Positions 20,558 through 39,553 of a stretch of DNA of 64,000 nucleotides are shown one piece after another. How positions within the stretch are numbered: the stretch's first letter is position 1; each line of letters begins with the position of its first letter. The notes beneath the pieces are model-generated. The model ran no database searches. It was not told where the DNA came from and saw nothing but the letters and a program-made list of their open reading frames with translations. This DNA comes from a virus. The stretch covers positions 1-64,000 of IMG/VR virus record IMGVR_UViG_3300045988_120048, one strand, 5' to 3'. The position numbers were made by a program, and so were the translations under genes.

Positions 20558-20559
20558 TT

Positions 20560-21906
20560 ATGTGTGGAATATTTGGTATCGTTACAAAGAGCATGAGGTC
20601 TTTTGACTTTCCAACTTTCTGTACATTAGGTATTGCTAATGACAGTAGAGGTGGTGACTCTTGTGGCTATTTTATTGATGGACACTACGAGTATGGAGCA
20701 AAAGGCGATGATAAGTGGTTCCAGTGTTTTTTCCAAGACAATAAGTTCCTTAATGAGCTTAAAATGAGTTCGGTAGCTTTTGGTCATTGTAGAAAAGCGT
20801 CTGTTGGTATCATCGACGAAACAACTGCTCAGCCAGTGGTACTTACTAATGCCAATGGAAAGGTAGAATATGTTCTAATGCATAATGGAACTATCTATAA
20901 TTACAAGGAGTTAGCTAAAAAATACATACCAGATATTGATATTACTGGTATGACTGACTCTCAGGTAATGGCTAGAATTTTCTATCGTTCTGGATACAAG
21001 GCACTCAGTGAGTATAACGGTGGAGCAGTGTTTGCAATTGCAGACTACCGTGGTGGAAAACCAAAGATTTTACTCTTTAAAGGAGCCTCCAAGAAAGACA
21101 AGTGGGATAAGAAGGAAACGGATGAACGTCCATTGTACTTCTGTGTCGATCCTATAAAGGGAGAGTTAATTTTCTCTTCTATTGCTTCTTATTTAATGTC
21201 TCTTAGACATAAGCTCACAACTTGGATTTTAAATCCAAATTGCCTCTTTGAGTTTAATGGTAAGGACTTAATTGCCGTTGAGGAAGTTTCTAGAGCCAAT
21301 GCTTGTCAAAGGAAGGAAACCGTATATGTAACTCCATCTAAATATGGTGGAAAATATTGGGGAGAATTTGGGCTGGAAGAAAGCAATGGTAATCTTTACG
21401 ACGATTTTATTTCGACTAACCAAGTAGATAATACTTATCATGGAAGGGGCAAAAAGCTCCAAGGACGAGTAATACTTAGTAAGTATGGAATGATGATGGA
21501 TGAAGCTCCTAAGAAGTCAACATATAAGGAGATATTCTTCTGGGATGGAGTTGCTCTTAAGAATGTTGCGTGCTTTCGATTTCTTACAGTCCTTAAGAAG
21601 GACAGCAAGCTCGAAGATAAAGAGTTTAATAAGAAGTTTAAGAACCTTATAAGGTATTTGAGCGTTGATGGTGTATATCATGAGAAGGATGTATGGTATC
21701 GAGCTACCTCTCCAACTAAGAGAGTTCCTTTTACAGGAACATTAAACATGATTACATCAACTTCTTCTACAGAATTTTTTGCTGGAAGCAGAAGAACTAC
21801 TAAATATGGTAGGACTTCTGATGAGGCATTTAGTTCTCTAGAGGAAGCTAAATTGGATGTTAATTTTAAAACAATTAAGGAAGAATGCAAGTCTTTGATG
21901 AAATAA
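20560..21906 (+). CDS. class-II (Ntn) glutamine amidotransferase domain protein
   Basis: N-terminal MCGIFGIV with catalytic Cys2, as in the Gn_AT_II family. Confidence 0.65.
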   Translation: MCGIFGIVTKSMRSFDFPTFCTLGIANDSRGGDSCGYFIDGHYEYGAKGDDKWFQCFFQDNKFLNELKMSSVAFGHCRKASVGIIDETTAQPVVLTNANGKVEYVLMHNGTIYNYKELAKKYIPDIDITGMTDSQVMARIFYRSGYKALSEYNGGAVFAIADYRGGKPKILLFKGASKKDKWDKKETDERPLYFCVDPIKGELIFSSIASYLMSLRHKLTTWILNPNCLFEFNGKDLIAVEEVSRANACQRKETVYVTPSKYGGKYWGEFGLEESNGNLYDDFISTNQVDNTYHGRGKKLQGRVILSKYGMMMDEAPKKSTYKEIFFWDGVALKNVACFRFLTVLKKDSKLEDKEFNKKFKNLIRYLSVDGVYHEKDVWYRATSPTKRVPFTGTLNMITSTSSTEFFAGSRRTTKYGRTSDEAFSSLEEAKLDVNFKTIKEECKSLMK

Positions 21907-22784
21907 CTAAAAGATGGGTGAGCTCTCGAAATTGTGCGAGGATTATCATCCAACAACTCCCAGAGCAAGTTATCTTCGGATATACTAGTAAGCCTGATAA
22001 GGTTGTTAGAGTTCTTATAGCTAGCTCTAGTGGGCATAGTAATTACTTTGAAACGGATTTAAATCTATATAAGGGGAAACTCTTGTATAGTAAGAGAAAT
22101 GGAGTATACTTTTCTCCTATCCATCACAACGAAGATTTTATACTTACAGAGCAGCTCATAAAGGGTTTCGGAGATTTTCCTTATATTCTTACTAGAAGGT
22201 ATGAAGCTGTAGAGAATTTCGATGCTTTCAATGGAAAGCAAGAAATCAAAGACCATGAAACTTTGTATCCCTTATCAAAATATTTAAAGTACACTTTTGG
22301 ACTGGAGTTCGAAACATCTCAAGGATATGTGCCTGAGGACGTATGTTATCGAGATGGATTAATCCCATTAAGGGATGGATCCATTACCGGACCAGAGTAC
22401 TCTACCGTTATACTGAAGGGAGGAGAGGGACTTTCTCTTCTTCATCAGCAGATAGAGACACTCAAAGAGTATACTAACTTTAATAAGGAATGCTCTCTAC
22501 ATGTTCATCTAGGAGGTTATCCTCTTAAGCCTGATACTATCTACAATCTTTATCTTGTATGTAAATCTATTGAACCTGAGCTGGAAAATATGCTTCCTGC
22601 TTTGACTTTCAATAGTGCTAGATATAAGGATAATGGTAAAGACTATTGTAAAAAGCTTGCTTTGTACGGTAGTTTTGAGGATATGTATTCACATCTAGTG
22701 GGAAGACAATTCTTCGGAAGCTTTACCCAAGCTCATCCTGATGATAAAGAACGAAAAAGAAAGTGGAATATACCAACTCGTTAG
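21885..22784 (+). CDS. amidoligase paralog, 5' exon
   Basis: FGLEFETSQG...SLHVHLGGY motifs of Amidoligase_2; ORF terminates at TAG-TAA immediately before intron-like sequence. Confidence 0.6.
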   Translation: MQVFDEITKRWVSSRNCARIIIQQLPEQVIFGYTSKPDKVVRVLIASSSGHSNYFETDLNLYKGKLLYSKRNGVYFSPIHHNEDFILTEQLIKGFGDFPYILTRRYEAVENFDAFNGKQEIKDHETLYPLSKYLKYTFGLEFETSQGYVPEDVCYRDGLIPLRDGSITGPEYSTVILKGGEGLSLLHQQIETLKEYTNFNKECSLHVHLGGYPLKPDTIYNLYLVCKSIEPELENMLPALTFNSARYKDNGKDYCKKLALYGSFEDMYSHLVGRQFFGSFTQAHPDDKERKRKWNIPTR

Positions 22785-23085
22785 TAAAATGGCGAGGCTA
22801 ACTGGAGACAGTTAGAAAAATAAATTGGGTGAATTTAGGGAAACCTAAATAAAATCATTATATTTGTAGTATATCAATTTATGCTACAAAGTAAGTGATT
22901 TTACAAGGCAATCCTAAGCCAAGCTATAGCTTAACAACTATAGAAGGTTCAGAGACTAACAGTTGAAACTCCTTTTAAGGAGAATATAATACTGACACGA
23001 GCGCCCGACATCCTTATGGGATGAAGATATAGTCCGATACCTAGAGGAAACTTTAGGATGCAAGATAAAGAACTTGCTATAACAT
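22785..23085 (+). mobile_element. group I intron (ORF-less) in amidoligase paralog
   Basis: Contains GGTTCAGAGACTAACAG (R element) and GAAGATATAGTCCGA (S element) in correct order; flanked by the two halves of one amidoligase reading frame. Confidence 0.7.
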
Positions 23086-23430: not shown

Positions 23431-24012
23431 ATGGCAAAACAGGTATTAGAAATTGAAGTTCCAGATGGTAAAAAAGCCATTTGGAAGGATGGTCGTGTTG
23501 TCTTCGAAGATGTAGATACTATGGAAAGTATCAAAACTATCGAGGACGCTGCTCAATTTCTCGCAGACAAGAGGATCTGTGAGGATATTCTGGACTCATT
23601 ATCTAGACTTCCTAAGGACTCATTTGAGTGGAAGATAGCTGCTTATAGGGCAGTGGTTGCAGCTGTAACCTATAATGAACAGAGGCATCTTACCACTGGA
23701 GAACGTTGGTTTCCTACTATTGAGTTCTGTCGACCTGGAAAGCTTAAGAATTGTTGCGGTGACATCGTTGTAGGACGAATCAAATCAGAAGGAGAAGAGT
23801 TCGATGTCGTGGGCGGTCACGCTTATAACGGCGCGAGTGCGGGTCTCGGTTCCTTCTACTCGTCTTACGGCGTGTCTTACGCCTGGACGTATATCGGCTT
23901 CCGGTCGGTTGGTTCAAAGAAAGCCGCTCTATACATTTCTAAGCAATTTGGAAAGCTTCTGTTTGAGGTTAGTTATGGTGGTACGAACTGTGATTGGAGA
24001 TGGATGGCATAG
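23431..24012 (+). CDS. hypothetical protein (contains a local GC-rich patch 23800-23900)
   Basis: ORF track, 193 aa. Confidence 0.45.
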   Translation: MAKQVLEIEVPDGKKAIWKDGRVVFEDVDTMESIKTIEDAAQFLADKRICEDILDSLSRLPKDSFEWKIAAYRAVVAAVTYNEQRHLTTGERWFPTIEFCRPGKLKNCCGDIVVGRIKSEGEEFDVVGGHAYNGASAGLGSFYSSYGVSYAWTYIGFRSVGSKKAALYISKQFGKLLFEVSYGGTNCDWRWMA

Positions 24013-24628: not shown

Positions 24629-26437
24629 ATGTTAACAGAAAGTTTAGTTATTGCAGGCGCAATAGTTGTGCTTGTAATCTTGACCCTCATCGGTCTTATG
24701 TCACGTTATCGTCGTTGTGCAAGTGATGAAATCTTGGTAGTCTTTGGTAAGACTGGCAAGAAAGTTGGAATTAATCCAGCAACTGGCAAGAAGGAAACAA
24801 CAATTCTTCCTTCTAAGATCATCCATGGCGGAGGTACCTTTGTATTCCCTGTAATTCAGGATTGGAAGAAGATGTCTCTGAAACCAATTCAGATTCAGAC
24901 AGAGGTAGAAGGTGTGTCAAGTCAGATGATTAAGGTCAAGATTCCGGTTACCTTGACTACTGGAATTGGTACAACTGATGTACTCATGCAAAATGCTGCA
25001 AGTCGTTTCCTGACTGCTAAACCTGATGAGATTTCTGCTCAAATTACTGATATTCTTATTGGTGAAATGCGTGCTTTGATGGCTACTATGACCATTGAAG
25101 AGATCAATGCTGACCGAATCAAGTTCCTTGGTAATGCTAAGGAGGATATTGAGACTGAATTGAACAAGGTAGGTTTCAGTATTATTAACATTAACAATGC
25201 TGATATTACTGATGATGCTGACTATATTAAGAATCTTGGTAAGAAGGCAGCTACCAAGGCAAAGGCTCAGGCTGAAGCAGACATCGCTGAGGAGGAAAAG
25301 AAGGGTGACATTCAGATTGCTGAAACCAATAAGGAGAAAGCAATTGCTGTAGCTGCTGCAGAGAAGGATCAAGCTACTCAGGTGGCTCAGACTAAGCAGG
25401 AGCAGGAAGTAAAGGTTGCCGAGATCGAGAAGAACAAGGCAATTAGTCTTGCAGAGGCTGATAAGACTAAGGAGTCTGAGGTTGCTAATCAGCAGGCTGA
25501 TAAGGAAGCTGCTACCGCTGCTGCACAGGCTCGTTCAGCTGCTGCTGTAGCAAAGTCTGAAGCAGATGCTCTTGCTGCACAGGCAGAGGCAGAGGCTGAG
25601 AAGAATATTCGTATGGCTAAGGCTGAACAGCAGCAGGAAGCTGAAACCAGAAAGGCTATTAATGAGCAGGAAGCTAAGGTAGCTGAGTATGATGCTGAAA
25701 AGCGTAAGCGTACAGCTGAAGCTAATAAGCAGGCAGGCGTAGCTGAGCAGACAGCAACTATTGAGGTTTCTAAGGCACAAGCTGAGGCTGCTAAGGCACA
25801 GGCTGAAGCAGTCCGTGTTGAGGGTGTATCTAAGGCTGAAGCTGAAGTAGCAATTGCTAAGAAGAATGCTGAAGCTAAGGAGGCACAGTTGAACGCTGAG
25901 TCTATTGTTCCTGCTCAGAAGAAGAAGGAAGCTGTAGTTATTGAGGCTGAGGCTGAGAAGCAGAAGAAGATTGTTGAGGCACAGGCTGAGGCTGAAGCAA
26001 TTAAGCAGAAAGCTTTAGCTGAGGCTCAGGCAATCCAGGCTAAGGCAGAAGCTGAGGCAGAGGGTAACAAGAAGAAACTCCTTGCTGAGGCAGAGGGTAA
26101 GCGTGCCTCTTTGATGGCTGAGGCTGATAAGGTTCAGGCTATTGAGATGGCTCCAGCACTTGCAATTGAGAAGATGATTGAGACAGGTATGACTCCGGAG
26201 ATGATTGTTCAGTATAAGACTGTCGATCAGCTTAAGGGTATTGCCGAAGCTCAGGCTGAGGTTTATGAGCATATCCATCTTGGTGAGGTTACTGTTTATG
26301 GTAACGAGAACACTGCTGGTAACTTCATGGCTTCAATGGCTGAGAATCTCAATCCAGCATTTGAACTTCTCAAGTCTATTCCTTTCAAGAAGACTCTCAA
26401 TGCTATAGCAGGCAAGGAAGAGGTCAAGAATGATTAA
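24629..26437 (+). CDS. flotillin-like SPFH/band-7 protein with long Ala/Glu/Lys-rich coiled coil
   Basis: N-terminal TM segment, SPFH-like region, then about 300 aa of EA/AEA/KAQAEA repeats (flotillin architecture). Confidence 0.7.
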   Translation: MLTESLVIAGAIVVLVILTLIGLMSRYRRCASDEILVVFGKTGKKVGINPATGKKETTILPSKIIHGGGTFVFPVIQDWKKMSLKPIQIQTEVEGVSSQMIKVKIPVTLTTGIGTTDVLMQNAASRFLTAKPDEISAQITDILIGEMRALMATMTIEEINADRIKFLGNAKEDIETELNKVGFSIININNADITDDADYIKNLGKKAATKAKAQAEADIAEEEKKGDIQIAETNKEKAIAVAAAEKDQATQVAQTKQEQEVKVAEIEKNKAISLAEADKTKESEVANQQADKEAATAAAQARSAAAVAKSEADALAAQAEAEAEKNIRMAKAEQQQEAETRKAINEQEAKVAEYDAEKRKRTAEANKQAGVAEQTATIEVSKAQAEAAKAQAEAVRVEGVSKAEAEVAIAKKNAEAKEAQLNAESIVPAQKKKEAVVIEAEAEKQKKIVEAQAEAEAIKQKALAEAQAIQAKAEAEAEGNKKKLLAEAEGKRASLMAEADKVQAIEMAPALAIEKMIETGMTPEMIVQYKTVDQLKGIAEAQAEVYEHIHLGEVTVYGNENTAGNFMASMAENLNPAFELLKSIPFKKTLNAIAGKEEVKND

Positions 26438-26537: not shown

Positions 26538-26621
26538 GGAGGGATAGCACGTAATTGGAAGCGTCACAGTCTTCTAAACTGTTGCCATATGGCCTTCAGG
26601 GTTCGAATCCCTGTCCCTTCA
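26538..26621 (+). tRNA. type II (long variable arm) tRNA with apparent anticodon UCU (Arg-like); atypical
   Basis: Acceptor GGAGGGA/TCCCTTC, anticodon stem ACAGT/ACTGT with loop CTTCTAA, variable-arm hairpin GCCATATGGC, T-arm CAGGG-TTCGAAT-CCCTG. Confidence 0.5.
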
Positions 26622-26746
26622 CATTATTATTAATTTTTGATGGGCATTCTTCCCTTATATGTTTAAAAAGAAATGATTTATGTATTATGTAGAGCAAATG
26701 GTTTGAAGAAAAAGAAAATTTAGAGAATATGATTCTCGTGTAGAAA

Positions 26747-27595
26747 ATGAGTTATGAAGACATAGGTAGACATTATGGTTGTAGTGGCTCAAATATTAAG
26801 AAAGTTGCTATTAGAATTGGTATTCAACTCCCTTAGAGAAGAAAATCAAAAGAAAGTGAAACTTTCAATAAGGGAACTGGACAGAAGTATTACTGTCTGA
26901 ACTGTGGAAAGTTGTTAAATCAAGACAATGGTGGTAGCTACAAGCATAAATTTTGTGATAACAAATGCTAGAGGGAATATCAGCACAAAATTGGGTATCA
27001 GAAAATACTAGATGGAGATTCATCAATAATGAGGGCTAATTACTCTCCACATGCTTTTAAGGACGATATACTTCAGGAACAAAATGGAGTATGTGCTATA
27101 TGTGGTTCAAAGCCTGAGTGGAATGGTAAACCTCTAGTATTTATTTTGGATCATATAGATGGTCATGCATCTAATAATATTAGAACTAATCTTAGATGTA
27201 TATGCCCAAACTGTGATTCTCAATTAGATACCTATAAATCTAAAAACAAATGTGGAGAAAGGAGTTACTATCGCTATCATAAATATGAGGATATAACTAA
27301 GCAAAAAGATAATGAACTAGTATTTAAGGAACTAAATCTCAATTTAGACATAAAGGTATGTACTATAGGGGGAGAAGAAATCAACCTTACAAAGAATGAA
27401 TTTAATCTCCTTGAATTTCTTATAAAGAACAAGAACAAAATACATTCTAGACAGGAAATCCTTAATAATGTATGGGATTCTAAAGTTTCTTTAAGAACTG
27501 TAGATACTACTATGTCGAGGTTGCGTAAAAAAATGAAAAATTTAGGTAAGTATTTAATAACTAGATTAGGATTTGGATACGGTATTTTGGAATGA
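26747..27595 (+). CDS. HNH endonuclease fused to C-terminal OmpR/PhoB-type winged-helix domain; two in-frame TAGs (26834, 26969)
   Basis: ATG 26747 gives MSYEDIGRHYGCSGSNIKKV...YCLNCGKLL...FCDNKC-TAG-..., paralogous to the N-terminus of the 5539 gene. It continues in frame into track ORF 27029-27595, which has HNH motifs CAICG...LDHIDGH...CPNC and a trans_reg_C-like LTKNEFNLLEFL...RTVDTTMSRLRKKM. Confidence 0.6.
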
Positions 27596-27612
27596 GGTTT
27601 TGCCATAATCTT

Positions 27613-27640
27613 ATAATAAGAGCACTTGCAGCAAAAATTC
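27613..27640 (+). promoter_or_regulatory. conserved intergenic motif, instance f (ATAATAAGAGCACTTGCAGCAAAAATTC)
   Basis: Family member, about 140 nt upstream of the minihelix element at 27777. Confidence 0.45.
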
Positions 27641-27776
27641 AAAAATAAAATATTATTCATAAAATGACTTTTGAATTTAATAACTAGCTGGTCTAGTCCG
27701 ATTTCTATTGAGGTTAATGTAGAATATTCTCTTGCTACTATTAGAAGATAAATAGAAGTAGTGGAGGTGCTCTGTT

Positions 27777-27823
27777 TAGGTTGGAGTTAAGGCTCTATAG
27801 AGGTTCGAACCCTCTCAACCTTC
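27777..27823 (+). ncRNA. tRNA minihelix-like element (acceptor-like stem plus T-arm; no anticodon arm)
   Basis: TAGGTTG-GAGTTAAGGCTCTAT-AGAGG-TTCGAAC-CCTCT-CAACCTT; 6 of 7 acceptor pairs. Confidence 0.4.
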
Positions 27824-27945
27824 TAAGTTTATAAAGATTAAAGTAGAATAAGATGAAAAAGAATGTTTTTGCCTTGAAATGAGTACACTTAGTACTCTCG
27901 TCTTTTCGGTTATTATTTCACTGTGTTGTATATTTTAATTAATTT

Positions 27946-28959
27946 ATGAAAAATTTTATGAAGAAATTTATTTTCATCATGAGTTTGCTGTTTACTCTGT
28001 GTAGTTTTACCTACTCACAAACAGCGTATGAAGAATCTAAAATCCTTGATAACACTTCTATTAGTGTTGTAGGTGGAGCAACTACTCCTCTGGACTTTAA
28101 CTCAGTATTTCCAGTAAATGGAGTTGCTGGTATTAAGTTGCAGAAGGACTTTACTCCTGTATTTGGGTTTAATATCGAAGGATTGGCTTCCTTTGGTGAT
28201 AACCACTATGGTAGTGCTCCTACTGTAGTAAAATCTGTTAATACCGGATTGAACGGAGTTGTTAACTTCTCTAACCTGCTGTGCGGATATAATGGAGCCC
28301 CTCGGAGGTTTGAAGTAAGCACTGAGACTGGTATTGGCTGGCTGCATAGTTGGACAGGACACTGTAACTATATTACCTCTAAAACTGGAGCGGTATTGTC
28401 ATTCAATCTAGGTAAGGAGAAGGCTCACTCGATTATAGTTAATCCTGCAGTATACTGGAATCTGAACAAGACAGGTCATGTAGAGTTCAATAAGAATTAT
28501 GCTCAGCTTGGTGTCTTGATTGGATGGGTATATCACTTTAAGACTTCTAATGGTACAAGAAGCTTTAAGGCATATGACATTGCATCAATGAACAATGAAA
28601 TTAATTCTCTTAAGAAGGATTTAGCAAAGAAACCTACAGAAATTGTAAAGGAAGTTGTTAAGACTGAAGTTGTTACTAATACAATTGGTAACACAGTGAT
28701 TTTCTTTGCACAAAATTCTGCAAAACTTACTGGAACCGCAATGTCTGAATTGTCTAAGATTCCATCTGGTTCTAAGGTAAGCATTATTGGTTCTGCGTCT
28801 CCAGAAGGCTCCTCTAATTACAATCAGAAGTTGTCGGAGAAACGTGCAAAAACTGTTTCCAAATTCTTAACTGGAAATGGTGTAATCGTAGAGAATTGTA
28901 TTGGAGCTGGTGTTACTGACACTACTAGTGGTCGTGTAGCAATAGTTACTATTAAGTAA
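27946..28959 (+). CDS. OmpA-family outer-membrane protein (signal peptide, beta-rich N-domain, OmpA-like C-domain)
   Basis: Signal peptide MKNFMKKFIFIMSLLFTLCSF; C-terminal GSASPEGSSNYNQKLSEKRAKTV matches the OmpA-like domain motif (NxxLSxxRA). Confidence 0.65.
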   Translation: MKNFMKKFIFIMSLLFTLCSFTYSQTAYEESKILDNTSISVVGGATTPLDFNSVFPVNGVAGIKLQKDFTPVFGFNIEGLASFGDNHYGSAPTVVKSVNTGLNGVVNFSNLLCGYNGAPRRFEVSTETGIGWLHSWTGHCNYITSKTGAVLSFNLGKEKAHSIIVNPAVYWNLNKTGHVEFNKNYAQLGVLIGWVYHFKTSNGTRSFKAYDIASMNNEINSLKKDLAKKPTEIVKEVVKTEVVTNTIGNTVIFFAQNSAKLTGTAMSELSKIPSGSKVSIIGSASPEGSSNYNQKLSEKRAKTVSKFLTGNGVIVENCIGAGVTDTTSGRVAIVTIK

Positions 28960-29138
28960 AACTTTAGGTAACAAACATCTCCCACTGACTCGTTTAAATA
29001 TCGTAAATTACCTTAAAATTAATCATTTGGGTTAGAAAGAAAAAGAACGTACGATAGGTGCTGGGACAATGGAATGTTATAATAAAACCAGTGAAAATAA
29101 CCTAAACTCATTTCTAGTTGGAGTATAACTAACTAGAT

Positions 29139-29218
29139 TACCTCCTTATATCAGTGGTAGAAGTTTAACAAAGTCTATATTAGTGAAACTGTCAGTGGTT
29201 CGAATCCACTAGGAGGTA
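29139..29218 (+). ncRNA. tRNA-like element (perfect acceptor ACCTCCT/AGGAGGT and T-arm AGTGG-TTCGAAT-CCACT; body does not fold into a canonical anticodon arm)
   Basis: Middle segment is about 6 nt longer than a class I tRNA; only an AGTTT/AAACT stem with a 19-nt loop is evident. Confidence 0.4.
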
Positions 29219-29253
29219 CTACCTGTTCCTGTAAACAAAAAAAAAAGAAGAAA

Positions 29254-30528
29254 ATGGCTGATTTTAATATGAGTAAATTGTGGCTCGGTAAAGATGGATA
29301 TTACCGAGATGTAAACGGCAACAAGATTGCCTAGAAAGGGCAGCCCATTTCTGGTGCTGCTTGGAGATATTTAGCAGGAAAATATGGAAGGGAAGTTGCC
29401 AATAGAACCTCAATGAATACTAGAAATGGAAACATATTCTAGAATGGACGTTGGCGTTTTAATGATATCAAATCTTCTAAGCAAGGGAAAACTGCTACAT
29501 GGGATGAAGCAGCTTCTAGAATAGAGGAAAATGCAAAGGCAGCAGGAGCTAGAAAGACAGCAACCGGCTATACATAGAGAAACCCTTTCAATAATAAAGA
29601 TACCTATCTAAATCAAGATACAAAGAATAAAGCTATGAAGGCTTATAGAGCACGACAGAAATCATAGACTTCTGCTGAGAATCCTGATGAATTTAGTTGG
29701 AGTGATCTAAATCCTTTCAAGAAAGGTGCTTGGGAAGGCAACTGGGATAGTGCAGCAAAAAACTTCGTTGATTCCTTTAAATCAATTCCTGATATTTGGA
29801 AAAAGGGGTATGCTAGAAGAGGTGAAATGTACGATAATGTTCCTCAGAGTGTGTTGGGTCCAAAACGAAACACAGGTGCTTTGGCACGATTCAATGATAC
29901 TCTTGGAGATATTTCTAGAACTGGAAATGCTGTTCTGGGAGGAACTATTGGAACTGCCTTGCAGCTCTTGCTACCATAGAAGGTTGAGAGAGAAGCTGGC
30001 AATCTAGGACAATATCTAGATCTAGGTAAAGATGTTAACTCTGTCAGAAGTTATTTAACTCCAGGAGAAGAAGGAATATTGCCAGATGATCCTAGGAATA
30101 AGGGATTTGCTGATTAGAATTTTGCCTGGACTGGACTAGACGAATAGTAGAGAAGAAATATTAACGATGATGCCAACTTTGCTATGGCTATCCTTGGAAC
30201 TAAAGGTATGAAGGGTGGAGTCTCTAGACTTAAGACTGGAGTCTCTGGAATGATAAGAGATGGAGTAGGTACTACGCTGAAGAATAATTGGAAACCTATT
30301 ATGTCTCATACACCAGGTGCTGCTAACCTTTATTAGGCTGGAAGTGCACTTAATTCTGTAAGAAGGGCATTAGCCCCTAAGAGACTAGGAGGAGCAGAAG
30401 GAATTGGCAGTAGATCTGCAAATGTAGGAAAAGCTGCATTTCAGGGGCTTATGGCTTCAGATCCTACTATGGCACTATACCCTTATGCACATAGCAGTTA
30501 TATGGTAAATTTATCTAATAATAATTAA
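29254..30528 (+). CDS. hypothetical protein encoded with about 9 in-frame TAG codons (read-through required); ends at TAA
   Basis: One frame is continuously open from ATG 29254 to TAA 30526 except for TAG codons (for example GCC TAG AAA; TTC TAG AAT; GAA TAG TAG AGA). No in-frame TAA or TGA. Track ORF 29726-30007 is in a different, spurious frame. Confidence 0.55.
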
Positions 30529-30530
30529 AT

Positions 30531-31997
30531 ATGAGTATTAAAAAGAAGGCACAATATTTAGGTGAGGGAGTAAATTGGTTAAAAGGTCATGGTTAGATGA
30601 TACCAGATTACTTCGGAAACCTGATGAGACGAATTGGAGGAGGTGAGAGAGCTGTAGTTAGAGCTAGGCAAGCTTCTCCAGAATTAATTGCATCTAGAAA
30701 TAGTTAGAGAGGAGCTGAAATGAGTCATAATCTTGCAGCTCAAAGATATAAAGAAGCTTAGCAAGCAGAAAGTAAATTATTAGACAGCACTAAAAATTGG
30801 AAGTAGCCTAATAGTAAAAGAAATGTAAAGAGAGTAAATGATGCTGCGCGAAAAACAGATGAAGCTGAAAGAAGTGCAATAACTGCATCATAGAAAAGTA
30901 TGGAAGCTAAGGAAGCTTTCAATAATACTAAGAGACAGGTTACGAATGATGCCCTAAGACAAGTTAGGAATAAAGGTATTAAAAGAACTCTTAAAACTAC
31001 TGGACTTGTAGGTGGTCTTGGTACTGGAGCTTATCTAGTTATTCCAAGAAATTCTAAATCACCTAGTGCTGCAGCTGAAAAGAAATTAAACAAGCTTGCA
31101 AAGTAGAAAATATTGCAGTAGACAGGTAGTTGGAGACCTACATAGAAGATGAGAGAAATCAACTTAGAAGGGAAGAAGCAGTCCATCAGGGATGCAAAAG
31201 CCATGAGGAGTGCAGCTTCTAAGGCTCAACTCAAATGGATGTAGGAAAACTCTGATAAAGCTACCAAGGTTTACAAGAGTGGCGCTAGAGAATTTGGAGG
31301 GGATGAAAATAAATTAGCCCTTCTAAAGGTTAGACAAGAAGCAATGAAACCATTCATTTCGTAGGAAGCAAGTAAAATCCGAAGGAATAGAGCATTAGGT
31401 ACTTTAGGCTTAGCCGGACTTGTCACTGCAGGTTATAACTTTGAACCAACTAACTTTTATGTTCACGATCTTCATAAAGGGTGGAGAAATAAAATTGGTT
31501 TGGATTCAAAGAGTACAACTCGTACCGAAAAAGATATGTCAGATAACTTCAATAATCAAATTCAAGAGTTGGCTGCTCTGGCAATAGCCTCTGATTAGAA
31601 GGGATTAACTCCTTGGGTTTACCAAGTGTATAATAGATCACATGGCAGGGAAGCTAAATATGCAGATTTTAGTAATCCTATAAAATTCCTTAACCCTGGA
31701 TAGAGAGTTGAATATTCTAATGGAGGTATGAGCATGTCCTAGTCTAGAAATAAGGATGGATTTAATGTAGTATTAACTGACGAAGCAGCTTGGGATCCAG
31801 ATTAGGGTGCATCCTATTCAGCACTTTCTCCTAGAGGACTTCCAGTTACATTAGGAGTGACTAGGAAGAATTTGGGAAATAATATTGACAAAATGAGATA
31901 TTAGTATAATATCCCGCTCGAAAAGGTAGATAGTATGCGGAATGTATACAATAAATATTCTGAAATAATAAGAAAAGAAAGAGAAAATAAGGCATGA
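30531..31997 (+). CDS. hypothetical protein encoded with about 23 in-frame TAG codons; ends at TGA overlapping the next gene's ATG
   Basis: Frame open from ATG 30531 to TGA 31995-31997 apart from TAGs; contains track ORF 30900-31106 in the same frame; no in-frame TAA or TGA. Confidence 0.55.
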
Positions 31998-32491
31998 AAA
32001 AGATGTTAGTATTGCTTATTAGCATTCCATGTATGTTTATCGCATGGTATTGCTATGGGATGGGTAAATCTCAGTATTCTGGAAATATCTATTCTTGTAT
32101 AGATATGAAAATAGAATATGGACATATCAATCCGAATAATTTGAAGGAAGTTATTGATTTCTCAAATGAGATAACTTCTCGTACATTAACTTTTTCTACA
32201 AAATCTGAATATAAAGGTTTTGATAAGTTATCATTAAACAAAGAGACTAAAACTCATTGTGTCTATTATGCCAGAACTTATAAGAAGGTATTTGATTACA
32301 TTATCTCAAAAGGTAACTTAAAAGCAACTTGTGAAATAAGAAGAGAACCCATAAAGGGTTTAGGATTTATTCCAAAATTCTTTAAGTCCATTGGAGATAC
32401 TAGAATGTATAATTTTACCAAGGACCATGACTACTGTGTAGTTAATGGCGTAATTGTAGTAGACCCAACTGTTTATGATTTCTTACATTAA
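31994..32491 (+). CDS. secreted or lipoprotein-like hypothetical protein
   Basis: ORF track, 165 aa; hydrophobic N-terminus; start overlaps upstream stop (ATGA). Confidence 0.45.
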   Translation: MKKMLVLLISIPCMFIAWYCYGMGKSQYSGNIYSCIDMKIEYGHINPNNLKEVIDFSNEITSRTLTFSTKSEYKGFDKLSLNKETKTHCVYYARTYKKVFDYIISKGNLKATCEIRREPIKGLGFIPKFFKSIGDTRMYNFTKDHDYCVVNGVIVVDPTVYDFLH

Positions 32492-32499
32492 GAAAAAGA

Positions 32500-32544
32500 A
32501 GCTCTATATGGTATTTTTGGCAGGTTCGAATCCTGCCAGAGCTA
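32500..32544 (+). ncRNA. tRNA minihelix-like element (acceptor stem plus T-arm; no anticodon arm)
   Basis: AGCTCTA-TATGGTATTTTTG-GCAGG-TTCGAAT-CCTGC-CAGAGCT. Confidence 0.45.
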
Positions 32545-32567
32545 CAATTAACTTTAATTTTTAACAT

Positions 32568-33452
32568 ATGGTTAACGAATTTTATCAAGAATTACCTAGT
32601 AATTATGCAAATTATGAAGACGTTGTTCTTCCTAAGCACGAATCAATGAGAGAAAAAACTCGTAGAGAGGGAGTATATGGGTATCATGACCATTGGAATA
32701 AGGATGCCTATACTTGGATAGATAGATTCCTTGAGGATTCTGTTGGGAAGAAGTTTGACAACGTATATCCTAAGGTATGCGAGAGATTTAGAAAGAAGAA
32801 GGACTTCGGGTTCCGTGAAGAGTTTAAGTCAAGAATTGATCCTCATAATATGTCTGATGTATGTTGGCATAGTAACAACTACTATTTGGATTCCAATCAT
32901 ATTATTAGAAGGTATAAACCTATTAAGAATAATAAGCGCAGAAAGTATGTTATGGAGCTAGATAGGTCAGAAGATTACTACATTGTAAACAAGGAAAAAC
33001 TCTTTTTGGAACATCCAGAAATTGTACTATATTTAAAAGCCAAATTGGGCAAGGATATAGATTATATAATTGCATCCAGTGAACGACTCTCGAATGACCT
33101 TGGAAAGAAGGTACAGGAGTGTATTACTGAGGCAATAGGAAAACTGTATACAAATTATCCTCCTAATTGGTCTCTTGATTACTGGTATTCTCCTATCATA
33201 CGAAATAAAAAGTATAAGAGGCTTAGTACTTCTGACCTCATAAAGTGTTATTACGATTCTATCAATAAAACGTATTATGAGGGAACTCCAGAGTATTCAA
33301 AACATTATTATGAGGAGAGATCTGCAGAGCGGAAACGAATGAGGGAGTATAGAAAGGAGAAAGAACTAGTCCACGCTCAAATGTTGAAAGACTCGTTAAT
33401 TAGAGCCAATGCGGAAAAGTGGATTAGAAAGAATACTCGCGAATCAAACTGA
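32568..33452 (+). CDS. hypothetical basic protein
   Basis: ORF track, 294 aa, K/R/Y-rich. Confidence 0.45.
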   Translation: MVNEFYQELPSNYANYEDVVLPKHESMREKTRREGVYGYHDHWNKDAYTWIDRFLEDSVGKKFDNVYPKVCERFRKKKDFGFREEFKSRIDPHNMSDVCWHSNNYYLDSNHIIRRYKPIKNNKRRKYVMELDRSEDYYIVNKEKLFLEHPEIVLYLKAKLGKDIDYIIASSERLSNDLGKKVQECITEAIGKLYTNYPPNWSLDYWYSPIIRNKKYKRLSTSDLIKCYYDSINKTYYEGTPEYSKHYYEERSAERKRMREYRKEKELVHAQMLKDSLIRANAEKWIRKNTRESN

Positions 33453-33559
33453 AAAAGGGTTTATAGTAAGTAGAATACAAACCAGAAACCCTGAGTAGGC
33501 TATAAATTGCCAAACAGCCATCCTTGTAATGAGGTAGGAGCGTTGTTAGGTATCCTTAT

Positions 33560-33590
33560 AAGATAACATACAGCAAAATTATTCTTCACT
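33560..33590 (+). promoter_or_regulatory. conserved intergenic motif, instance g (TATAAGATAACATACAGCAAAATTATTC)
   Basis: About 100 nt upstream of tRNA-Trp. Confidence 0.45.
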
Positions 33591-33674
33591 TCTTAAAAAT
33601 GAATAAAGACCCCTCTATTTTGGGTTCTTCAATGGAGGTTAAAGAGAATGTTAGAACCTTGTTGTCTGATTTTA

Positions 33675-33746
33675 TGCACCTATAGGTTAATGGTTAGACT
33701 AGCGGTCTCCAAAATCGCAGATGGGAGTTCGATTCTCTCTGGGTGT
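33675..33746 (+). tRNA. tRNA-Trp (anticodon CCA)
   Basis: Acceptor GCACCTA/TGGGTGT (with G:U pairs), anticodon stem GCGGT/ATCGC with loop CTCCAAA, T-arm GGGAG-TTCGATT-CTCTC. Confidence 0.6.
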
Positions 33747-33765
33747 GCTAATTAAGTTTAGCAAT

Positions 33766-34071
33766 ATGGAAAATATAAAGGTAAAAGACGAAGAGATTAT
33801 CGTACCTTGTGATGACTCAGTTAATGAGTTATTTATTTGCCAATGTAATAACGTAGAACATCAACTTATTTTCTCATACTTTTCTGATGATGAGGATAAA
33901 GATGTCTATGTATCAGTACATTTATCTCCAGATTCTTTCTGGAAACGCATTTGGAACTCTATAAAGTACATATTCGGATATAGGTGCATGTTTGGTCACT
34001 TTGATGAATTTATCTTTAAGAAGCAAGATGCAGGCAAGTTACAAAGGGTAGTGGATTTTCTCAAGTCTTAA
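33766..34071 (+). CDS. hypothetical protein (likely start MENIKVKDEEI inside track ORF 33721-34071)
   Basis: ORF track; the upstream part overlaps tRNA-Trp, so the internal ATG is preferred. The printed sequence and the track appear to differ by one nt near 33840. Confidence 0.4.
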   Translation: MENIKVKDEEIIVPCDDSVNELFICQCNNVEHQLIFSYFSDDEDKDVYVSVHLSPDSFWKRIWNSIKYIFGYRCMFGHFDEFIFKKQDAGKLQRVVDFLKS

Positions 34072-34757: not shown

Positions 34758-35273
34758 ATGGTATCTGAAAACGGAACTAAAGTATGTTGTAAATGTGGAA
34801 AAGAGAAACCAGTGAGTGAGTTTCATAAAGACAAGAACTCAAGTGATGGTTATACCTATCAGTGTAAAGAATGTAGAAATGCAAAATACAAAGAGTATTA
34901 TCACTCTAACATTGATAAAATGAAAGAGAAACGGGAAAATACTAAGGAATATCGAAAAGAATATTATAGCGATCCAGAAAGGAAATTTCAGTATAGAAAA
35001 AGGTATATTGAACGAGAGTTCGGTATTAAATATGAGCAGTATGATAAGATGCTAGAGGCACAAGAGGGGGTATGCGCTATATGTGGCAAACCTGAAACGA
35101 AATCTAATGCTAAATATCTAGCGGTGGATCATAATCACGAAACTGGTGTAGTAAGAGGGTTACTGTGCAATAATTGTAATAGAGCCCTTGGTCTTCTCGG
35201 TGATAACGTGGAAACATTACAAAACGCAATAAATTATTTATTAAAACATGAGAGAAATAATAACAGCATGTGA
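34758..35273 (+). CDS. HNH endonuclease (endonuclease VII-like zinc-binding HNH)
   Basis: CxxC...CxxC N-terminal; LAVDHNHETGVVRGLLCNNCN. Confidence 0.7.
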   Translation: MVSENGTKVCCKCGKEKPVSEFHKDKNSSDGYTYQCKECRNAKYKEYYHSNIDKMKEKRENTKEYRKEYYSDPERKFQYRKRYIEREFGIKYEQYDKMLEAQEGVCAICGKPETKSNAKYLAVDHNHETGVVRGLLCNNCNRALGLLGDNVETLQNAINYLLKHERNNNSM

Positions 35274-36801
35274 TGGATATAAATTATCTCATCATCGTAT
35301 GTACCCAGAGGGTACACAAATGGTTTATAGTAACTGGACTCCAAGAAGTTGCCGTTACTTTCCAGAAGCCACAGAAGGCTCTGTAGTATTTGGTATTCAG
35401 TACTTTGTAAAGAAGTATTTGATTGAGGAATTTAACAAATGGTTTGCTCTTCCTAAGGAAGAAGCTATTAAGCAATTTGCTTATCGTGTAGGTAACTTTG
35501 TAGACCTTAATCAGGTTGGAACAAAGCATATTGAGGAACTTTATGATTTAGGATATCTTCCTATTGAAATTAAAGCTCTTCCTGAGGGTTCTATCTGCCC
35601 TATAAGGGTACCTATGATGACTATTAAGAATACTCTTCCGGACTTCTTCTGGTTGACTAATTATTTGGAGACTCTGATTAGCTGCACTCTATGGCTTCCT
35701 TGTACTTCTGCAACAAGTGCTCGTCTTTATAAGAAGAGACTTATGGAACATGCTAGAAAGACTGGATTCCCGGAGGAAGTAAATCTGGGTTTCTCCTGTC
35801 ACGATTTCTCAATGAGAGGTATGGCTGGACTTGATGCCGCTATTATCTCTGGTATGGCTCACATGACTTCATTCTGTGGTAGTGAAACAATTCCTGCTAT
35901 TGAAGCAGTAGAGCACTATTACAATGCAGATGTTACTAAAGAACTTGTAGCTGCAACTGTTCCAGCAACTGAACACAGTGTAATGTGTGCAGGAGGTGAG
36001 GACGATGAGATTGAAACATATCGTCGTCTTATTAATGACCTATATCCAACAGGTATTATCTCAATAGTATCTGATACTTGGGATTTCTGGCAGGTAGTTG
36101 AGAAGTTCTTGCCTAAGCTTAAGGCAGACATTATTAAGCGTGATGGTCGAGTAGTAATTCGTCCTGATAGTGGTGATCCAGTAGATATTATTTGTGGTCT
36201 TCGTACAAATCCTCATTATCACACTGCAATGAAGGAAGGCAAGTACTACTGTGATTTCAATCCATTTATGGATGATGATGAAAGTCATTATGTAGAAGTA
36301 TCTGAAGGTCAGTACTATGGAGCATATTATATGCTAGGCAAGATCTTTGGCTGGAATACTACTGTAAACGATTATCGTTATCCAAGTACCAAGGTAGGTT
36401 TGCTCTATGGAGATTCTATCACTCTGGAGCGTCAGCGTGATATCTATGCTCGATTAGAGAACGCTCATATGGCAGCTTGTAACCTCGTTCTCGGCATTGG
36501 ATCTTATACTTATCAGTTTAAGTCTCGTGATTCTTTGGGATTTGCAGTTAAAGCAACTGCATGTACTATTAAAGGACAACTTCGAGAAATCTTTAAGCAT
36601 CCAAAGACTGATGATGGAACGAAGAACTCCCTTAAAGGTCTTATTAGAGTTGAGGAGGAGAATGGCAAGTATGTTGCTTATGATCAGCAGACTAAGGATG
36701 CAGAACTGGGAGGCTGTCTTAAAACAGTCTTTGTAAACGGAGACTTAGTAAGAGAATATTCTCTTTCTGAGATTCGAGAACGTGTAAATTCAACACTATG
36801 A
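35248..36801 (+). CDS. nadV: nicotinamide phosphoribosyltransferase (NAMPT/NadV-like)
   Basis: Size of about 517 aa and the VVIRPDSGDPVD motif characteristic of NAMPT/NAPRT-family enzymes. Confidence 0.7.
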   Translation: MREIITACDGYKLSHHRMYPEGTQMVYSNWTPRSCRYFPEATEGSVVFGIQYFVKKYLIEEFNKWFALPKEEAIKQFAYRVGNFVDLNQVGTKHIEELYDLGYLPIEIKALPEGSICPIRVPMMTIKNTLPDFFWLTNYLETLISCTLWLPCTSATSARLYKKRLMEHARKTGFPEEVNLGFSCHDFSMRGMAGLDAAIISGMAHMTSFCGSETIPAIEAVEHYYNADVTKELVAATVPATEHSVMCAGGEDDEIETYRRLINDLYPTGIISIVSDTWDFWQVVEKFLPKLKADIIKRDGRVVIRPDSGDPVDIICGLRTNPHYHTAMKEGKYYCDFNPFMDDDESHYVEVSEGQYYGAYYMLGKIFGWNTTVNDYRYPSTKVGLLYGDSITLERQRDIYARLENAHMAACNLVLGIGSYTYQFKSRDSLGFAVKATACTIKGQLREIFKHPKTDDGTKNSLKGLIRVEEENGKYVAYDQQTKDAELGGCLKTVFVNGDLVREYSLSEIRERVNSTL

Positions 36802-37229
36802 AGCACCCATTCAATCAGCAAGCCTGCTTAGATAGGCTCAAAGGGGAGTATGATAAATACGGTAAGCTGATTGTTGCCTTTGACTTTGACAACACTATAT
36901 ATGACTTCCATAATAATGGAGGTGATTATAGTGAAGTCATTGAACTTTTAAAAGAATGTATTAAACTAGAGTTTGATCTCATTCTGTTTACCGTGGATGA
37001 GGATCCTGATAAAGTATCTGAGAAGGTACGATGGCTAGTATCTAATGATTTATGGAACTACAAGAGTTCCCATTTCTTTGTTAATACTAGTCCAATATTT
37101 AGCAGATCCAGAAAACCCTATTATAATATTCTGCTTGATGATAGAGCGGGATTGGAAGAAAGTTATAACATTTTAAAACAAGTTGTAGATTATGCAAATT
37201 CTAAATTTAGTAAATTTGGAGAAGAGTGA
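36798..37229 (+). CDS. HAD-superfamily hydrolase (phosphatase)
   Basis: Motif I FDFDNTI (DxDxT). Confidence 0.5.
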   Translation: MKHPFNQQACLDRLKGEYDKYGKLIVAFDFDNTIYDFHNNGGDYSEVIELLKECIKLEFDLILFTVDEDPDKVSEKVRWLVSNDLWNYKSSHFFVNTSPIFSRSRKPYYNILLDDRAGLEESYNILKQVVDYANSKFSKFGEE

Positions 37230-38001
37230 CATTAAGTATACTCTATCCAGATTTCCAGATGGGGAAGTACAAATTTCCTTAGGAGACTTCAGTCACAAAG
37301 ACCAAATCTGTGTAAAGTGTAGAATTACTAATGCTGAGGAGTTGTTCATTGTGACTCAGGTTCTCGACATTCTTGACAGACATGATGTCTGTTATGACGT
37401 CGATATATTTTATCTTATGGGAATGAGAATGGATAGAGTCATGGACTTTAACCGCCCATTTACTCTTAAGGTAATAACAAAGATGCTTGGTAATTCTAAC
37501 GCAGAAAATATTTCTGTTTTAGAGCCTCACTCAGATGCGATATACGACTATAGATTTGGAGACAAATTTAGAGCCTTGTATCCTGAGAAACATACACGCC
37601 CAGATGGTTGGACGGTTGATTATCAGTTAGTCTTACCAGACGCTGGAGCAGTGGAGCGCTACGAATATCTTGATAAAGATCCTATATCTTGCAGCAAAGT
37701 TCGTGATACAGCTACTGGCAAAATTTTAGAGATTAAAATAGACAATTCTGAAAAACTTGATGGTAGACCATTAATGATAATTGATGATTTGTGCGATGGA
37801 GGAGGAACCTTCTGTGGAATTGCAGAATGCTTCAAAAAGATTGGAATACCTAAAGACAGACTTAACATCTCTGTAGTTCATATGGTTAATCCTAAGGGCA
37901 TTGAGAATCTATCTAAGAATTTCAATCACGTATGGTTTACTAACTCTTATAAGGACTGGGAGAATCTTCCAGAAAATGTAACAATGATTAAAGTAGTATA
38001 A
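37192..38001 (+). CDS. prs: ribose-phosphate pyrophosphokinase (PRPP synthetase)
   Basis: N-terminal RFPDGEVQISL (compare Prs RFSDGEVSVQI) and PRPP-binding loop LMIIDDLCDGGGT. Confidence 0.65.
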   Translation: MQILNLVNLEKSDIKYTLSRFPDGEVQISLGDFSHKDQICVKCRITNAEELFIVTQVLDILDRHDVCYDVDIFYLMGMRMDRVMDFNRPFTLKVITKMLGNSNAENISVLEPHSDAIYDYRFGDKFRALYPEKHTRPDGWTVDYQLVLPDAGAVERYEYLDKDPISCSKVRDTATGKILEIKIDNSEKLDGRPLMIIDDLCDGGGTFCGIAECFKKIGIPKDRLNISVVHMVNPKGIENLSKNFNHVWFTNSYKDWENLPENVTMIKVV

Positions 38002-38135: not shown

Positions 38136-39308
38136 ATGAGGAGAGTAGTTATTGTTGGAATGGGAATATATTCCAGCATAGGCACTAATAAAAAAGAGGT
38201 TCTAGAGTCTTTACGAAAGGGCTTCTGTGGAATTGGAATGGATCCATCTAGGGAAGGGTTTAACTCTAAACTAACTGGAATCGTCCCAATTCCAGATAAA
38301 ATACCTCAGCATATTAGAAGATATATGGCTCCTCAAACCTGCTATATGTACAATGCCCTAAACGAGGCTTTAGAAGATGCTCACTTAGAATGTCCTCCTG
38401 TTAACTGTGGATTAATTATTGGAAATGATAGTAGTTCTCAGGCTACAGTAGAGGCAGTAGAGTCCTATTCTAAACTCAAAAGGACTTCTAAGTTGGGTGC
38501 AACTCATGTTTTTAAGACATTAACTTCTAATCCTACAGCTGTTCTAAGTACATACTTTAGACTAGAGGGTCCATCCTTTAGTGTTGGGGGAGCATGTGCT
38601 TCTGGAGCTCACGCAATAGGAGTTAGCTATAACTTGATTGCTGGGGGCGCTGCAGACATTATAGCTGCAGGTGGATGTCAGGAGGTTAATCCTGCTGCCA
38701 CCTTTGCCTTTGATGCTATTGGAACTTTCTCAAAATCCACTATTCCTAAAGAAGCGGTTAAGCCCTTTGATAAGAATAGAGAGGGGTTAGTTCCTAGCGG
38801 TGGCGCAGCTTGTTTAATCTTAGCAGAAATGGATTGGGCATTGGAGCAGAATCTTCAAATTTATGGGGAGATAGTTGGATATGGAGCTAATTCTTCTAAT
38901 CATCTCTCGAAGAGTGATTTGAACGCTGAATTAGAGTGTATGCAGAAAGCCCTTAGGAACTATTCTCCTAATGATGTTAGTGTAATTAGTGCCCACGCTA
39001 CTGGTACAGTTGATGGCGATCTCAGTGAAGCAGGAGCTATACTAGGATTATTTGATAAATGTAGACCCTACATAAGTGCAACCAAGGCTCTTACTGGACA
39101 CGAAATGTGGGCAGCAGGGTCTACTGAAATAGTATATTCAATATTATCTAGTAAAGCTGGCTTTGTTCCACCTAATATTAATACTGAAGATGGTTCCTAC
39201 TCCCTTAATATCCATAGAGACTTAGTAGAAGTTGAATCCCCAAAGTTCATTTTGAGTAATTCCTTTGGACTAGGCGGTACTAACAGTTCAATATTAATTA
39301 AGTTATGA
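38136..39308 (+). CDS. beta-ketoacyl-ACP synthase (KAS I/II, FabF/FabB-like)
   Basis: Active-site Cys in GGACASGAHAIG; His motifs SAHATGT and ALTGHEMWAAG; C-terminal GGTNSS. Confidence 0.8.
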   Translation: MRRVVIVGMGIYSSIGTNKKEVLESLRKGFCGIGMDPSREGFNSKLTGIVPIPDKIPQHIRRYMAPQTCYMYNALNEALEDAHLECPPVNCGLIIGNDSSSQATVEAVESYSKLKRTSKLGATHVFKTLTSNPTAVLSTYFRLEGPSFSVGGACASGAHAIGVSYNLIAGGAADIIAAGGCQEVNPAATFAFDAIGTFSKSTIPKEAVKPFDKNREGLVPSGGAACLILAEMDWALEQNLQIYGEIVGYGANSSNHLSKSDLNAELECMQKALRNYSPNDVSVISAHATGTVDGDLSEAGAILGLFDKCRPYISATKALTGHEMWAAGSTEIVYSILSSKAGFVPPNINTEDGSYSLNIHRDLVEVESPKFILSNSFGLGGTNSSILIKL

Positions 39309-39553
39309 TAGAGGAAATAATTTCTGACATAATTCACTATATTACGGAAGACATAGGATACCCTGTGCAGTTGAATGAGAACAGCAATTTAGCAGATGAT
39401 GCAGGAATGGATAGTCTAGATACGGTAGATCTCCTAGGGCACCTTGAGGCTAAGTATGATGTTAAGTTCAACGAGGAGGATCATTCTATCTTTAAGAAAA
39501 GTATTCGTGAAATAGCGAAGTATACTGATTCACTAAGAGGAAATGAAGCATAA
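39305..39553 (+). CDS. acyl carrier protein
   Basis: DAGMDSLDTVDLL phosphopantetheine-attachment motif; 82 aa acidic. Confidence 0.75.
   Translation: MIEEIISDIIHYITEDIGYPVQLNENSNLADDAGMDSLDTVDLLGHLEAKYDVKFNEEDHSIFKKSIREIAKYTDSLRGNEA

Follow-up and report, generated by a model that had tools for sequence, protein, structure and literature searches.

Two adjacent reading frames located at 29254-31997 in a 64,000-nt stretch of viral DNA (positions 1 to 64,000 of IMG/VR record IMGVR_UViG_3300045988_120048; the whole stretch is called the window here) are open only if TAG is read as a sense codon. The locus therefore raises the question whether these frames, named gA and gB and together called the island, are genes written in a second genetic code, which amino acid TAG would encode, and what could read it. 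The answer we favor, with a probability of about 0.88, is that the window belongs to an uncultivated gut phage of about 165-180 kb with genes in two codes, most of them standard and a second set using TAG for glutamine (Gln). This second set would consist of the island, HNH endonuclease genes next to transfer RNA (tRNA) genes, and a convergent block of genes just outside the window.

Coordinates of all features are compiled in Table 1. Both frames were open except for TAG and ended cleanly at TAA or TGA, and the gB stop codon overlapped the ATG of the next gene at 31994, as described in an earlier note on this DNA. The size of gA and its number of TAG codons were given correctly in that note; the TAGs are found at codons 27, 63, 108, 138, 242, 288, 298, 299, and 361. 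For gB, about 23 TAGs had been reported where we counted 15, and the consecutive TAG TAG assigned to gB (30145, 30148) belongs to gA. TAA and TGA occur at 0.053 per triplet on this strand; the 912 codons of gA and gB contain none, as compared to 13-51 in their off-frames. The longest run free of TAA and TGA in 1000 shuffles of the region had a mean of 97 codons and never exceeded 210, and gA and gB were by far the longest TAG-containing open runs in all six frames. Openness of the two frames by chance is excluded.

Homologues of gA were identified in at least 17 assemblies from IMG/VR, ENA, Logan, and NCBI, originating from many samples and mostly represented by contigs of 165-182 kb. All relatives examined, down to about 50% protein identity, carried a TAG-rich gA-like gene and following genes without TAA or TGA (independent assemblies L001-L003, L007, L008, L010-L014, and L019-L028). 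TAG counts per island gene were 8, 14, 11, and 6 in L007 and 13, 17, 5, 8, and 5 in L014; many TAG positions are common to several lineages, and the pipelines of the source databases themselves render the island genes with TAG as Q. Comparison of gA with nine relatives revealed substitutions mostly at the third codon position (e.g., 37/22/88 and 39/24/111 for the three positions). The whole read-through frame is therefore under purifying selection, which excludes the idea of a pseudogene. TAG was kept at codons 27 and 63 of gA in 16 of 17 sequences; this was not taken as evidence of selection on the TAG codon itself, as nearby synonymous sites were about as conserved.

The alignments also bear on the meaning of TAG, which the earlier note had held to be unreadable from the sequence. 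TAG columns aligned with sense codons of the relatives, not with gaps or termini. In gA, a CAG or CAA partner was present at 8 of 11 variable TAG columns, including some two-nucleotide exchanges between TAG and CAA, and the same held for most variable columns of gB; AAG or GAG occurred a few times, TGG, TAY, TCG, and TTG essentially never. Among 17 distinct N-terminal domains of gA, 50 of the 139 sense residues that shared a column with TAG were Gln; relative to its background of 2.7%, this is an approximately 13-fold enrichment, obtained with an alignment made inside the phage family only. As TAG is swapped mainly with CAG and CAA, it most likely encodes Gln, corresponding to genetic code 15. 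TAG as Gln was proven by proteomics in crAss-like phages (Peters et al., PMC9523058).

TAG apparently retained its function as a stop codon elsewhere in the window. A core set of 69 open reading frames (ORFs), picked as standard-code and hence TAG-free by choice, covers 15,154 codons or 72% of the window. These ORFs end with TAA (45), TGA (15), or TAG (9); one of the nine TAG stops is the internal TAG of the HNH gene 5539-6129, leaving about 8 of 68 genes truly ended by TAG. As claimed previously, nrdD, both helicase genes, and KAS lack in-frame TAG, and the TAG-ended genes are followed closely by a TAA or TGA, which was found 0, 1, 3, 5, 11, 17, 18, and 27 codons downstream. The TAG stop of the gene 23431-24012 aligned exactly with the TAA terminus of its homologues in L012 and L014; therefore, TAG is still a stop in standard-code genes. 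An apparent TAG stop at 22782 must be viewed differently: a group I intron splits the amidoligase-like gene at this site, and the TAG is therefore intronic. ORF coverage under reassignment of a single stop codon was 0.82 for TAG and also 0.82 for TAA; this measure does not discriminate at the scale of the window, and we therefore relied on evidence from individual genes.

Recoding was also observed in the HNH endonuclease genes of the window, all four of which directly follow a tRNA gene or the transfer-messenger RNA (tmRNA) gene. Their one to three in-frame TAGs, and domains that become contiguous upon read-through, had been noted before. Counting gave 1, 2, 3, and 2 TAGs, the last number referring to a start at 26747 and rising to 4 with a start at 26687; the third TAG of gene 14331-14807, at 14793, may be a real stop. 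Pfam and PHROG matches crossed the TAG positions: HTH_23 in gene 2470-3039 (residues 3-36) crosses the TAG at residue 22, phrog_1271 in gene 5539-6129 (residues 61-183) both TAGs, and phrog_2255 in gene 14331-14807 (residues 7-128) two TAGs. The fourth frame consists of an HNH insertion of about 624 nt (~26687-27315) and a separate Trans_reg_C gene of 95 amino acids (~27311-27595). The insertion is present in the window, L019, L001, L012, L021, and L011 and absent from L002, L003, L007, L013, L014, L023, L024, and L026; relatives lacking it keep just the Trans_reg_C gene. It is accompanied by a distinct 85-nt allele of tRNA-Arg(UCU) with a long variable arm (26538-26622), and in HNH-free genomes, this place is taken by an unrelated tRNA-Arg of 75 nt (L001, L002, L007, L011, and L012 were compared). 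The tRNA-Arg allele changes together with the presence of the HNH gene, and therefore both appear to be swapped as one cassette. A further HNH endonuclease gene was found in one relative only (L037, 14062-15003; phrog_559, 313 amino acids); it contains 11 in-frame TAGs, and selfish endonuclease genes are therefore again seen in the style with TAG as Gln.

The region beyond the right end of the window was accessible in the closest relative, where a walk reached about 30 kb past this end. Genes encoding a ligase, Thg1, a sigma factor, and PolA were followed by a convergent block of giant ORFs with 604, 931, 815, and 1520 codons containing 21, 31, 23, and 32 TAGs. About 20 further IMG/VR contigs carried ORFs of about 1550 codons with about 50 and up to about 59 TAGs. 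The share of TAG among Gln codons was 0.53 in the island, 0.56 in the convergent block, and 0.36 in the HNH genes. The convergent block has the same codon habit as gA and gB, which therefore constitute a small cassette of late style in an early block; rather than an isolated oddity, the finding is an island in the late codon style, surrounded by early genes of a phage with mixed coding. Hence, the recoding of a gene subset proposed in the earlier note was supported, but it is not limited to two genes and the HNH genes, because a large block lies just outside the window. The match to the recoding reported for gut phages, pointed out there, also agrees with our data: ORFs open except for TAG, alignment of TAG with Gln, and a set of standard-code genes were all found. 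Furthermore, a wider family was delineated by a conserved protein of 150 amino acids. Its members L039-L046 have giant ORFs with about 50 TAGs, and L064 and L066 have similarly long ORFs in the standard code, with 1555 codons in the more distant relative L064. Close members are TAG-rich and distant ones standard; therefore, the genetic code differs within the family.

We further analyzed the content of the island. The gA protein is conserved in an N-terminal domain (~residues 1-135) and variable toward its C-terminus; an AlphaFold2 (AF2) model was confident for residues 1-130 only. Searches with gA and gB gave no match in Pfam or PHROG and no match to PDB sequences or usable fold match. The number of island genes ranges from 1 to 5 among relatives; the closest of them harbor gA, gB1 (336 amino acids), and gB2 (345 amino acids), an arrangement with two gB genes seen in L002, L019, L003, and L021 (sizes taken from L002). 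The gB of the window looks like an in-frame fusion of the first ~179 codons of gB1 with the last ~309 codons of gB2; in the alignment with the relatives, about 597 nt are deleted at window position 31067, which would give this fusion, and mosaic matches were obtained with the second island gene of L014 (L014_g2) and the third of L007 (L007_g3). Several island proteins of relatives contain weakly hydrophobic, glycine-rich segments, and the gA and gB proteins of the window fall below the hydropathy cut-off. An OmpA-like lipoprotein gene in standard code is located upstream of the island, and in several relatives a standard-code gene for a GH25 muramidase with a lipoprotein signal peptide is located downstream. 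Our best guess, held at somewhat less than even odds, is that the island proteins might have a late role directed at the envelope or at lysis; a location inside the virion is the main alternative. A scan for sigma-70 promoters and terminators around the island yielded no enrichment over shuffled sequences.

A possible source of suppression is a tRNA-like element with a CUA anticodon upstream of gA, perhaps co-transcribed with the island. The earlier note had called for a suppressor tRNA(CUA), and ARAGORN, which labels any CUA tRNA as 'Pyl', indeed detected this element. It is the sole CUA-bearing one among the 21 tRNA-type genes of the window, and neither the window nor 88 loci yielded a second, canonical CUA, UUA, or UCA tRNA. 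The element has an acceptor stem of 7 bp, a canonical T arm of 5 bp with a TTCRANY loop (AGTGG TTCGAAT CCACT), the GG of the D-loop, and a long central arm that closes with a loop of 7 nt, G-U-C-U-A-U-A, in which CUA takes the anticodon position between U33 and U37. Eight sequence variants were compared. All 163 of 163 cells in 21 pairs were paired and four double changes were present, as compared to 36-46% pairing in slid controls. Four helices are supported, namely the acceptor stem, the T arm (with AU to GC and GC to AU double changes), an outer central stem in which the D region's 3' half (columns 23-27) pairs with the variable region (columns 58-62), and an inner stem; single-sequence folds of the variants disagree with each other. 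The 80-nt form of the window has lost 11 nt, and two substitutions restore a 5-bp stem with U33-CUA-U37 displayed in its 7-nt loop. The element was detected with both halves only in four IMG/VR contigs which also carry gA.

An intergenic stretch of about 146 nt just upstream of the CUA element shares about 83% identity with sequences of Lak megaphages and of the crAss-like Burzaovirus cr124_1 and cr7_1, where the match is located 12 nt before a tRNA-Met gene. RNAalifold analysis of five sequences predicted 31 pairs, seven of them with compensatory double changes, and no Rfam match was found. A covariance model detected one copy each in L011, L019, and L028 and none in L007, L012, and L014. This stretch is a candidate for an undescribed structured RNA linked to phage tRNA genes.

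Several alternatives to a mixed code with TAG as Gln have to be considered. The TAG-containing frames could be decaying pseudogenes or truly split genes in which TAG acts as a real stop; they have no family match, the number of island genes varies, and gB looks like the product of a deletion. This reading, named in the earlier note as a possible objection, is effectively refuted: the frames lack TAA and TGA and stay open across the relatives with many shared TAG positions, their substitutions are biased to the third position, TAG alternates with Gln codons, and HNH domain matches run across it. There is a slight chance that TAG is sense but specifies Lys, Glu, Tyr, Trp, or pyrrolysine. The few columns in which TAG pairs with AAG or GAG speak for Lys or Glu and hence against Gln, and the tRNA-like gene does not reveal its identity elements; on the other side stand the predominance of Gln codons as partners in both genes, the enrichment of Gln in gA, the near absence of TGG, TAT/TAC, TCG, and TTG partners, and the lack of any sign of Pyl machinery. 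Furthermore, all phage cases tested to date were Gln (Borges et al., bioRxiv 10.1101/2021.08.26.457843; Peters et al., PMC9523058). A host that itself reads TAG as Gln, or an infected cell that does so from the start, so that TAG stops are constitutively read through and no switch in time occurs, would account for the back-up stops 0-27 codons after TAG-ended genes. We regard it as very improbable, since TAG is absent inside about 68 standard-code genes, yet accounts for about every second Gln codon in the island and the late block, and since a TAG stop coincides with the TAA stop of relatives; in addition, no bacterium with TAG as Gln is known as host of such phages (Borges et al., bioRxiv 10.1101/2021.08.26.457843).

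Within the mixed-code reading, the identity of the suppressor is the weaker part, and a number of observations count against a complete system as we envisage it. The CUA element has no proper D stem (two Watson-Crick pairs are possible between 10-13 and 22-25), its position 37 is U where a canonical tRNA has a purine, and the Rfam tRNA model RF00005 (gathering threshold 29 bits) gave no match to it in a 501-nt slice even at E ≤ 10. In the 91-nt form of most relatives, CUA lies within a loop of 8 nt, or a UCUAU/AUAGA hairpin can bury it; the diverged version of L008 and L026 has no CUA loop, and the element is missing both from L012, despite its TAG-rich gA-like gene, and from about 20 heavily recoded IMG/VR relatives. 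The window and 1.2 Mb of related loci, which represent part of each genome, yielded neither a release factor (GGQ motif), for which the earlier note had also advised a search, nor a glutaminyl-tRNA synthetase (GlnRS). Finally, profile searches gave no family match for the giant recoded ORFs and the island. We somewhat favor the explanation that TAG is Gln but that the element is not the suppressor, this function being fulfilled by another tRNA encoded elsewhere or by a near-cognate host tRNA-Gln with release factor 1 (RF1) disabled. The element would then be a processing signal for RNase P or RNase Z, a leader of the island mRNA, or a relic of a tRNA-linked mobile cassette; other cassettes of a tRNA plus a gene are swapped as units in this genome. 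This explanation has to cope with a unique CUA-bearing, tRNA-like gene with covarying stems, a tRNA-like acceptor stem, T arm and D-loop GG, and the two substitutions that restored the anticodon-type stem after the 11-nt deletion. A working amber suppressor at 29140-29219 appears possible, though somewhat less likely than not. Tentatively, it could be a suppressor of a new structural type in which the D stem gives way to a helix between the variable region and the 3' half of the D region; its CUA would be displayed in an 8-nt loop or be maskable in a hairpin in most relatives, and it might travel as a cassette together with the TAG-rich genes which it serves.

For the mixed-code phage, we infer the following course of events. 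Early in infection, the host would read TAG as stop and the recoded genes would yield short fragments, with the gA product ending at codon 27. Build-up of an amber-suppressing Gln-tRNA(CUA), for which the element upstream of gA would be the only candidate in the window, a tentative assignment, would then allow full translation of the recoded genes; the few early genes terminated by TAG would run on to their nearby back-up TAA or TGA. In this way, recoding would time the translation of late-type and selfish genes. Family matches are lacking for gA, gB, and the giant recoded ORFs, and the term 'late' is therefore based on analogy and gene order.

Table 1. Positions of genes and RNA elements in the 64,000-nt window.
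Feature	Position	Strand	In-frame TAG	Remarks
gA	29254-30528	+	9	424 sense codons; TAA/TGA 0; stop TAA
gB	30531-31997	+	15	488 codons; TAA/TGA 0; stop TGA 31995-31997
CUA tRNA-like element	29140-29219	+		35 nt upstream of gA; ARAGORN anticodon cta
HNH gene (HTH + HNH)	2470-3039	+	1 (2533)	Directly after tRNA-Asn
HNH gene (zinc ribbon + HNH)	5539-6129	+	2 (5797, 5875)	Between two tRNA-Met genes
HNH gene	14331-14807	+	3 (14370, 14640, 14793)	Directly after tmRNA gene
HNH insertion + Trans_reg_C frame	26687-27595	+	4 (26690, 26741, 26834, 26969)	After tRNA-Arg(UCU)
nrdD	57996-60164		0	
Helicases	44049-45329 and 46212-47315		0 in both	
KAS	38136-39308		0	
Standard-code gene with TAG stop	23431-24012	+		TAG at 24010; back-up TAA one codon on
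Group I intron	22773-23057	+		Rfam RF00028, 88 bits; interrupts amidoligase-like gene starting at 21885
Group I intron	48363-48645	+		RF00028, 50 bits; 3' end of LAGLIDADG gene 47677-48537
tmRNA gene	13793-14123	+		Rfam RF00023, 65.7 bits; inside tRNA array, followed by TAG-containing HNH gene
Intergenic element, ~146 nt	28962-29108	+		Just upstream of CUA tRNA-like element
abiF RNA motif match	7001-7038	+		RF03085, 50.2 bits (gathering score 37); tRNA region
tRNA-Asn	2385-2469			85 nt; long variable arm
tRNA-Pro	12974-13062			89 nt; long variable arm
tRNA-Arg	26538-26622			85 nt; long variable arm
tRNA-His(GUG)	15241-15312			Weak; Rfam 33.9 bits; missed by ARAGORN

The window as a whole is a block of genes on one strand with 20 tRNA genes plus the CUA element, a tmRNA gene, and two group I introns. 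It encodes metabolism and replication functions including NAD-salvage enzymes, RNase H, endonuclease VII, helicases, nrdD, and KAS. The second intron overlaps the final ~175 nt of the LAGLIDADG endonuclease gene. Three tRNAs (tRNA-Asn, tRNA-Pro, and tRNA-Arg) have long variable arms unusual for their isotypes, and the acceptor stem of tRNA-His(GUG) is poorly paired; a tRNA-His guanylyltransferase of the Thg1 family is encoded beyond the right end of the window, at a distance of about 2 kb (2.3-3.1 kb; L032, 12322-13074). Auxiliary metabolism is represented by NAMPT and PRPP synthetase for NAD salvage (35248-38001), a beta-ketoacyl synthase (38136-39553), which is adjoined by an acyl-carrier protein in L013, and a cluster of glutamine amidotransferase, amidoligase, and gamma-glutamyl-hydrolase-like genes (17984-21906). 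A flotillin/Band_7 protein of 602 amino acids is encoded at 24629-26437.

Mixed coding with TAG as Gln is already well described in large gut phages, and the pattern found here matches the reports by Borges et al., Yutin et al., and Peters et al. Human-gut phages of 99-190 kb with TAG as Gln and standard-code early genes preferentially recode their lysis, late, and structural modules, sometimes in a scattered manner, and also an intron endonuclease; a suppressor-bearing 'code change module' can be located immediately upstream of a lysis cassette, and suppressors were detected in 40% of TAG-recoded genomes (Borges et al., bioRxiv 10.1101/2021.08.26.457843). The phage studied here resembles these code-15 phages (Borges et al. 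2021/2022; the clades Lak, crAss-like, Garnet, Amethyst, Sapphire, and Topaz) in its size, in standard early genes beside TAG-recoded modules, in alignment of TAG with Gln, in recoded homing endonucleases, and in a candidate suppressor tRNA-like gene beside a recoded cassette; in code-15 phages, the suppressor is often undetectable by standard tools. It differs from them in that its island proteins have no recognizable lysis or structural domains and in that no release factor or aminoacyl-tRNA synthetase was seen in the readable part of the genome. The Jade phages likewise have a suppressor-type tRNA gene directly upstream of a recoded run with a muramidase nearby, but their module recodes TGA to Trp and adds a tryptophanyl-tRNA synthetase (TrpRS) and RF1 (Borges et al.), whereas here only a candidate tRNA-like element is present.

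Code-15 crAss-like phages use TAG as Gln in late genes and share with the phage studied here a forward block of tRNAs and nucleic-acid metabolism genes, followed by an opposite block of very large ORFs, as well as many tRNAs, introns, and homing endonucleases; their suppressor tRNA(CUA) genes are sometimes hard to detect (Yutin et al. 2021; Peters et al., PMC9523058; PMC12386605); for zeta crAss-like phages, the same two-block layout and hard-to-find CUA suppressors were described (PMC12386605). In contrast, the region 27000-34000 of the window has no DNA match to Crassvirales except for one HNH gene and the 146-nt RNA element. Four proteins searched against Crassvirales and annotated phages gave no annotated relative except for the flotillin (39.5% identity to csAssE-Sib), and DNA and tblastn searches of GenBank phages with gA, the flotillin, a giant ORF, and the tRNA region revealed no close relative. 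The phage lineage is absent from annotated GenBank phage records.

GlnRS depends on U35 of its tRNA. The E. coli supE-type amber suppressor, a tRNA-Gln with a CUA anticodon read as Gln, shares this anticodon with the phage element; furthermore, a weak A1-U72 first pair and A73 are common to the element and the phage's own tRNA-Gln(UUG). Unlike the canonical cloverleaf of supE, the element has no D stem, carries U37, and shows no sequence relationship with the phage tRNA-Gln.

These results have consequences for the annotation of such phages. In the standard code, the island, the homing endonucleases, and the whole late block break into meaningless fragments, and when code 15 is applied everywhere, TAG-terminated early genes are over-extended. 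The phage represents one more large gut-phage lineage in which TAG as Gln is a likely translational timer, and it shows in compact form how a late-style cassette can lie among early genes. The CUA tRNA-like gene is the only potentially new part; if functional, it would widen the range of structures to be sought for missing suppressors. Suppressors of a new type that evade covariance models would, if they exist, help to explain the apparent lack of suppressors in most TAG-recoded phages.

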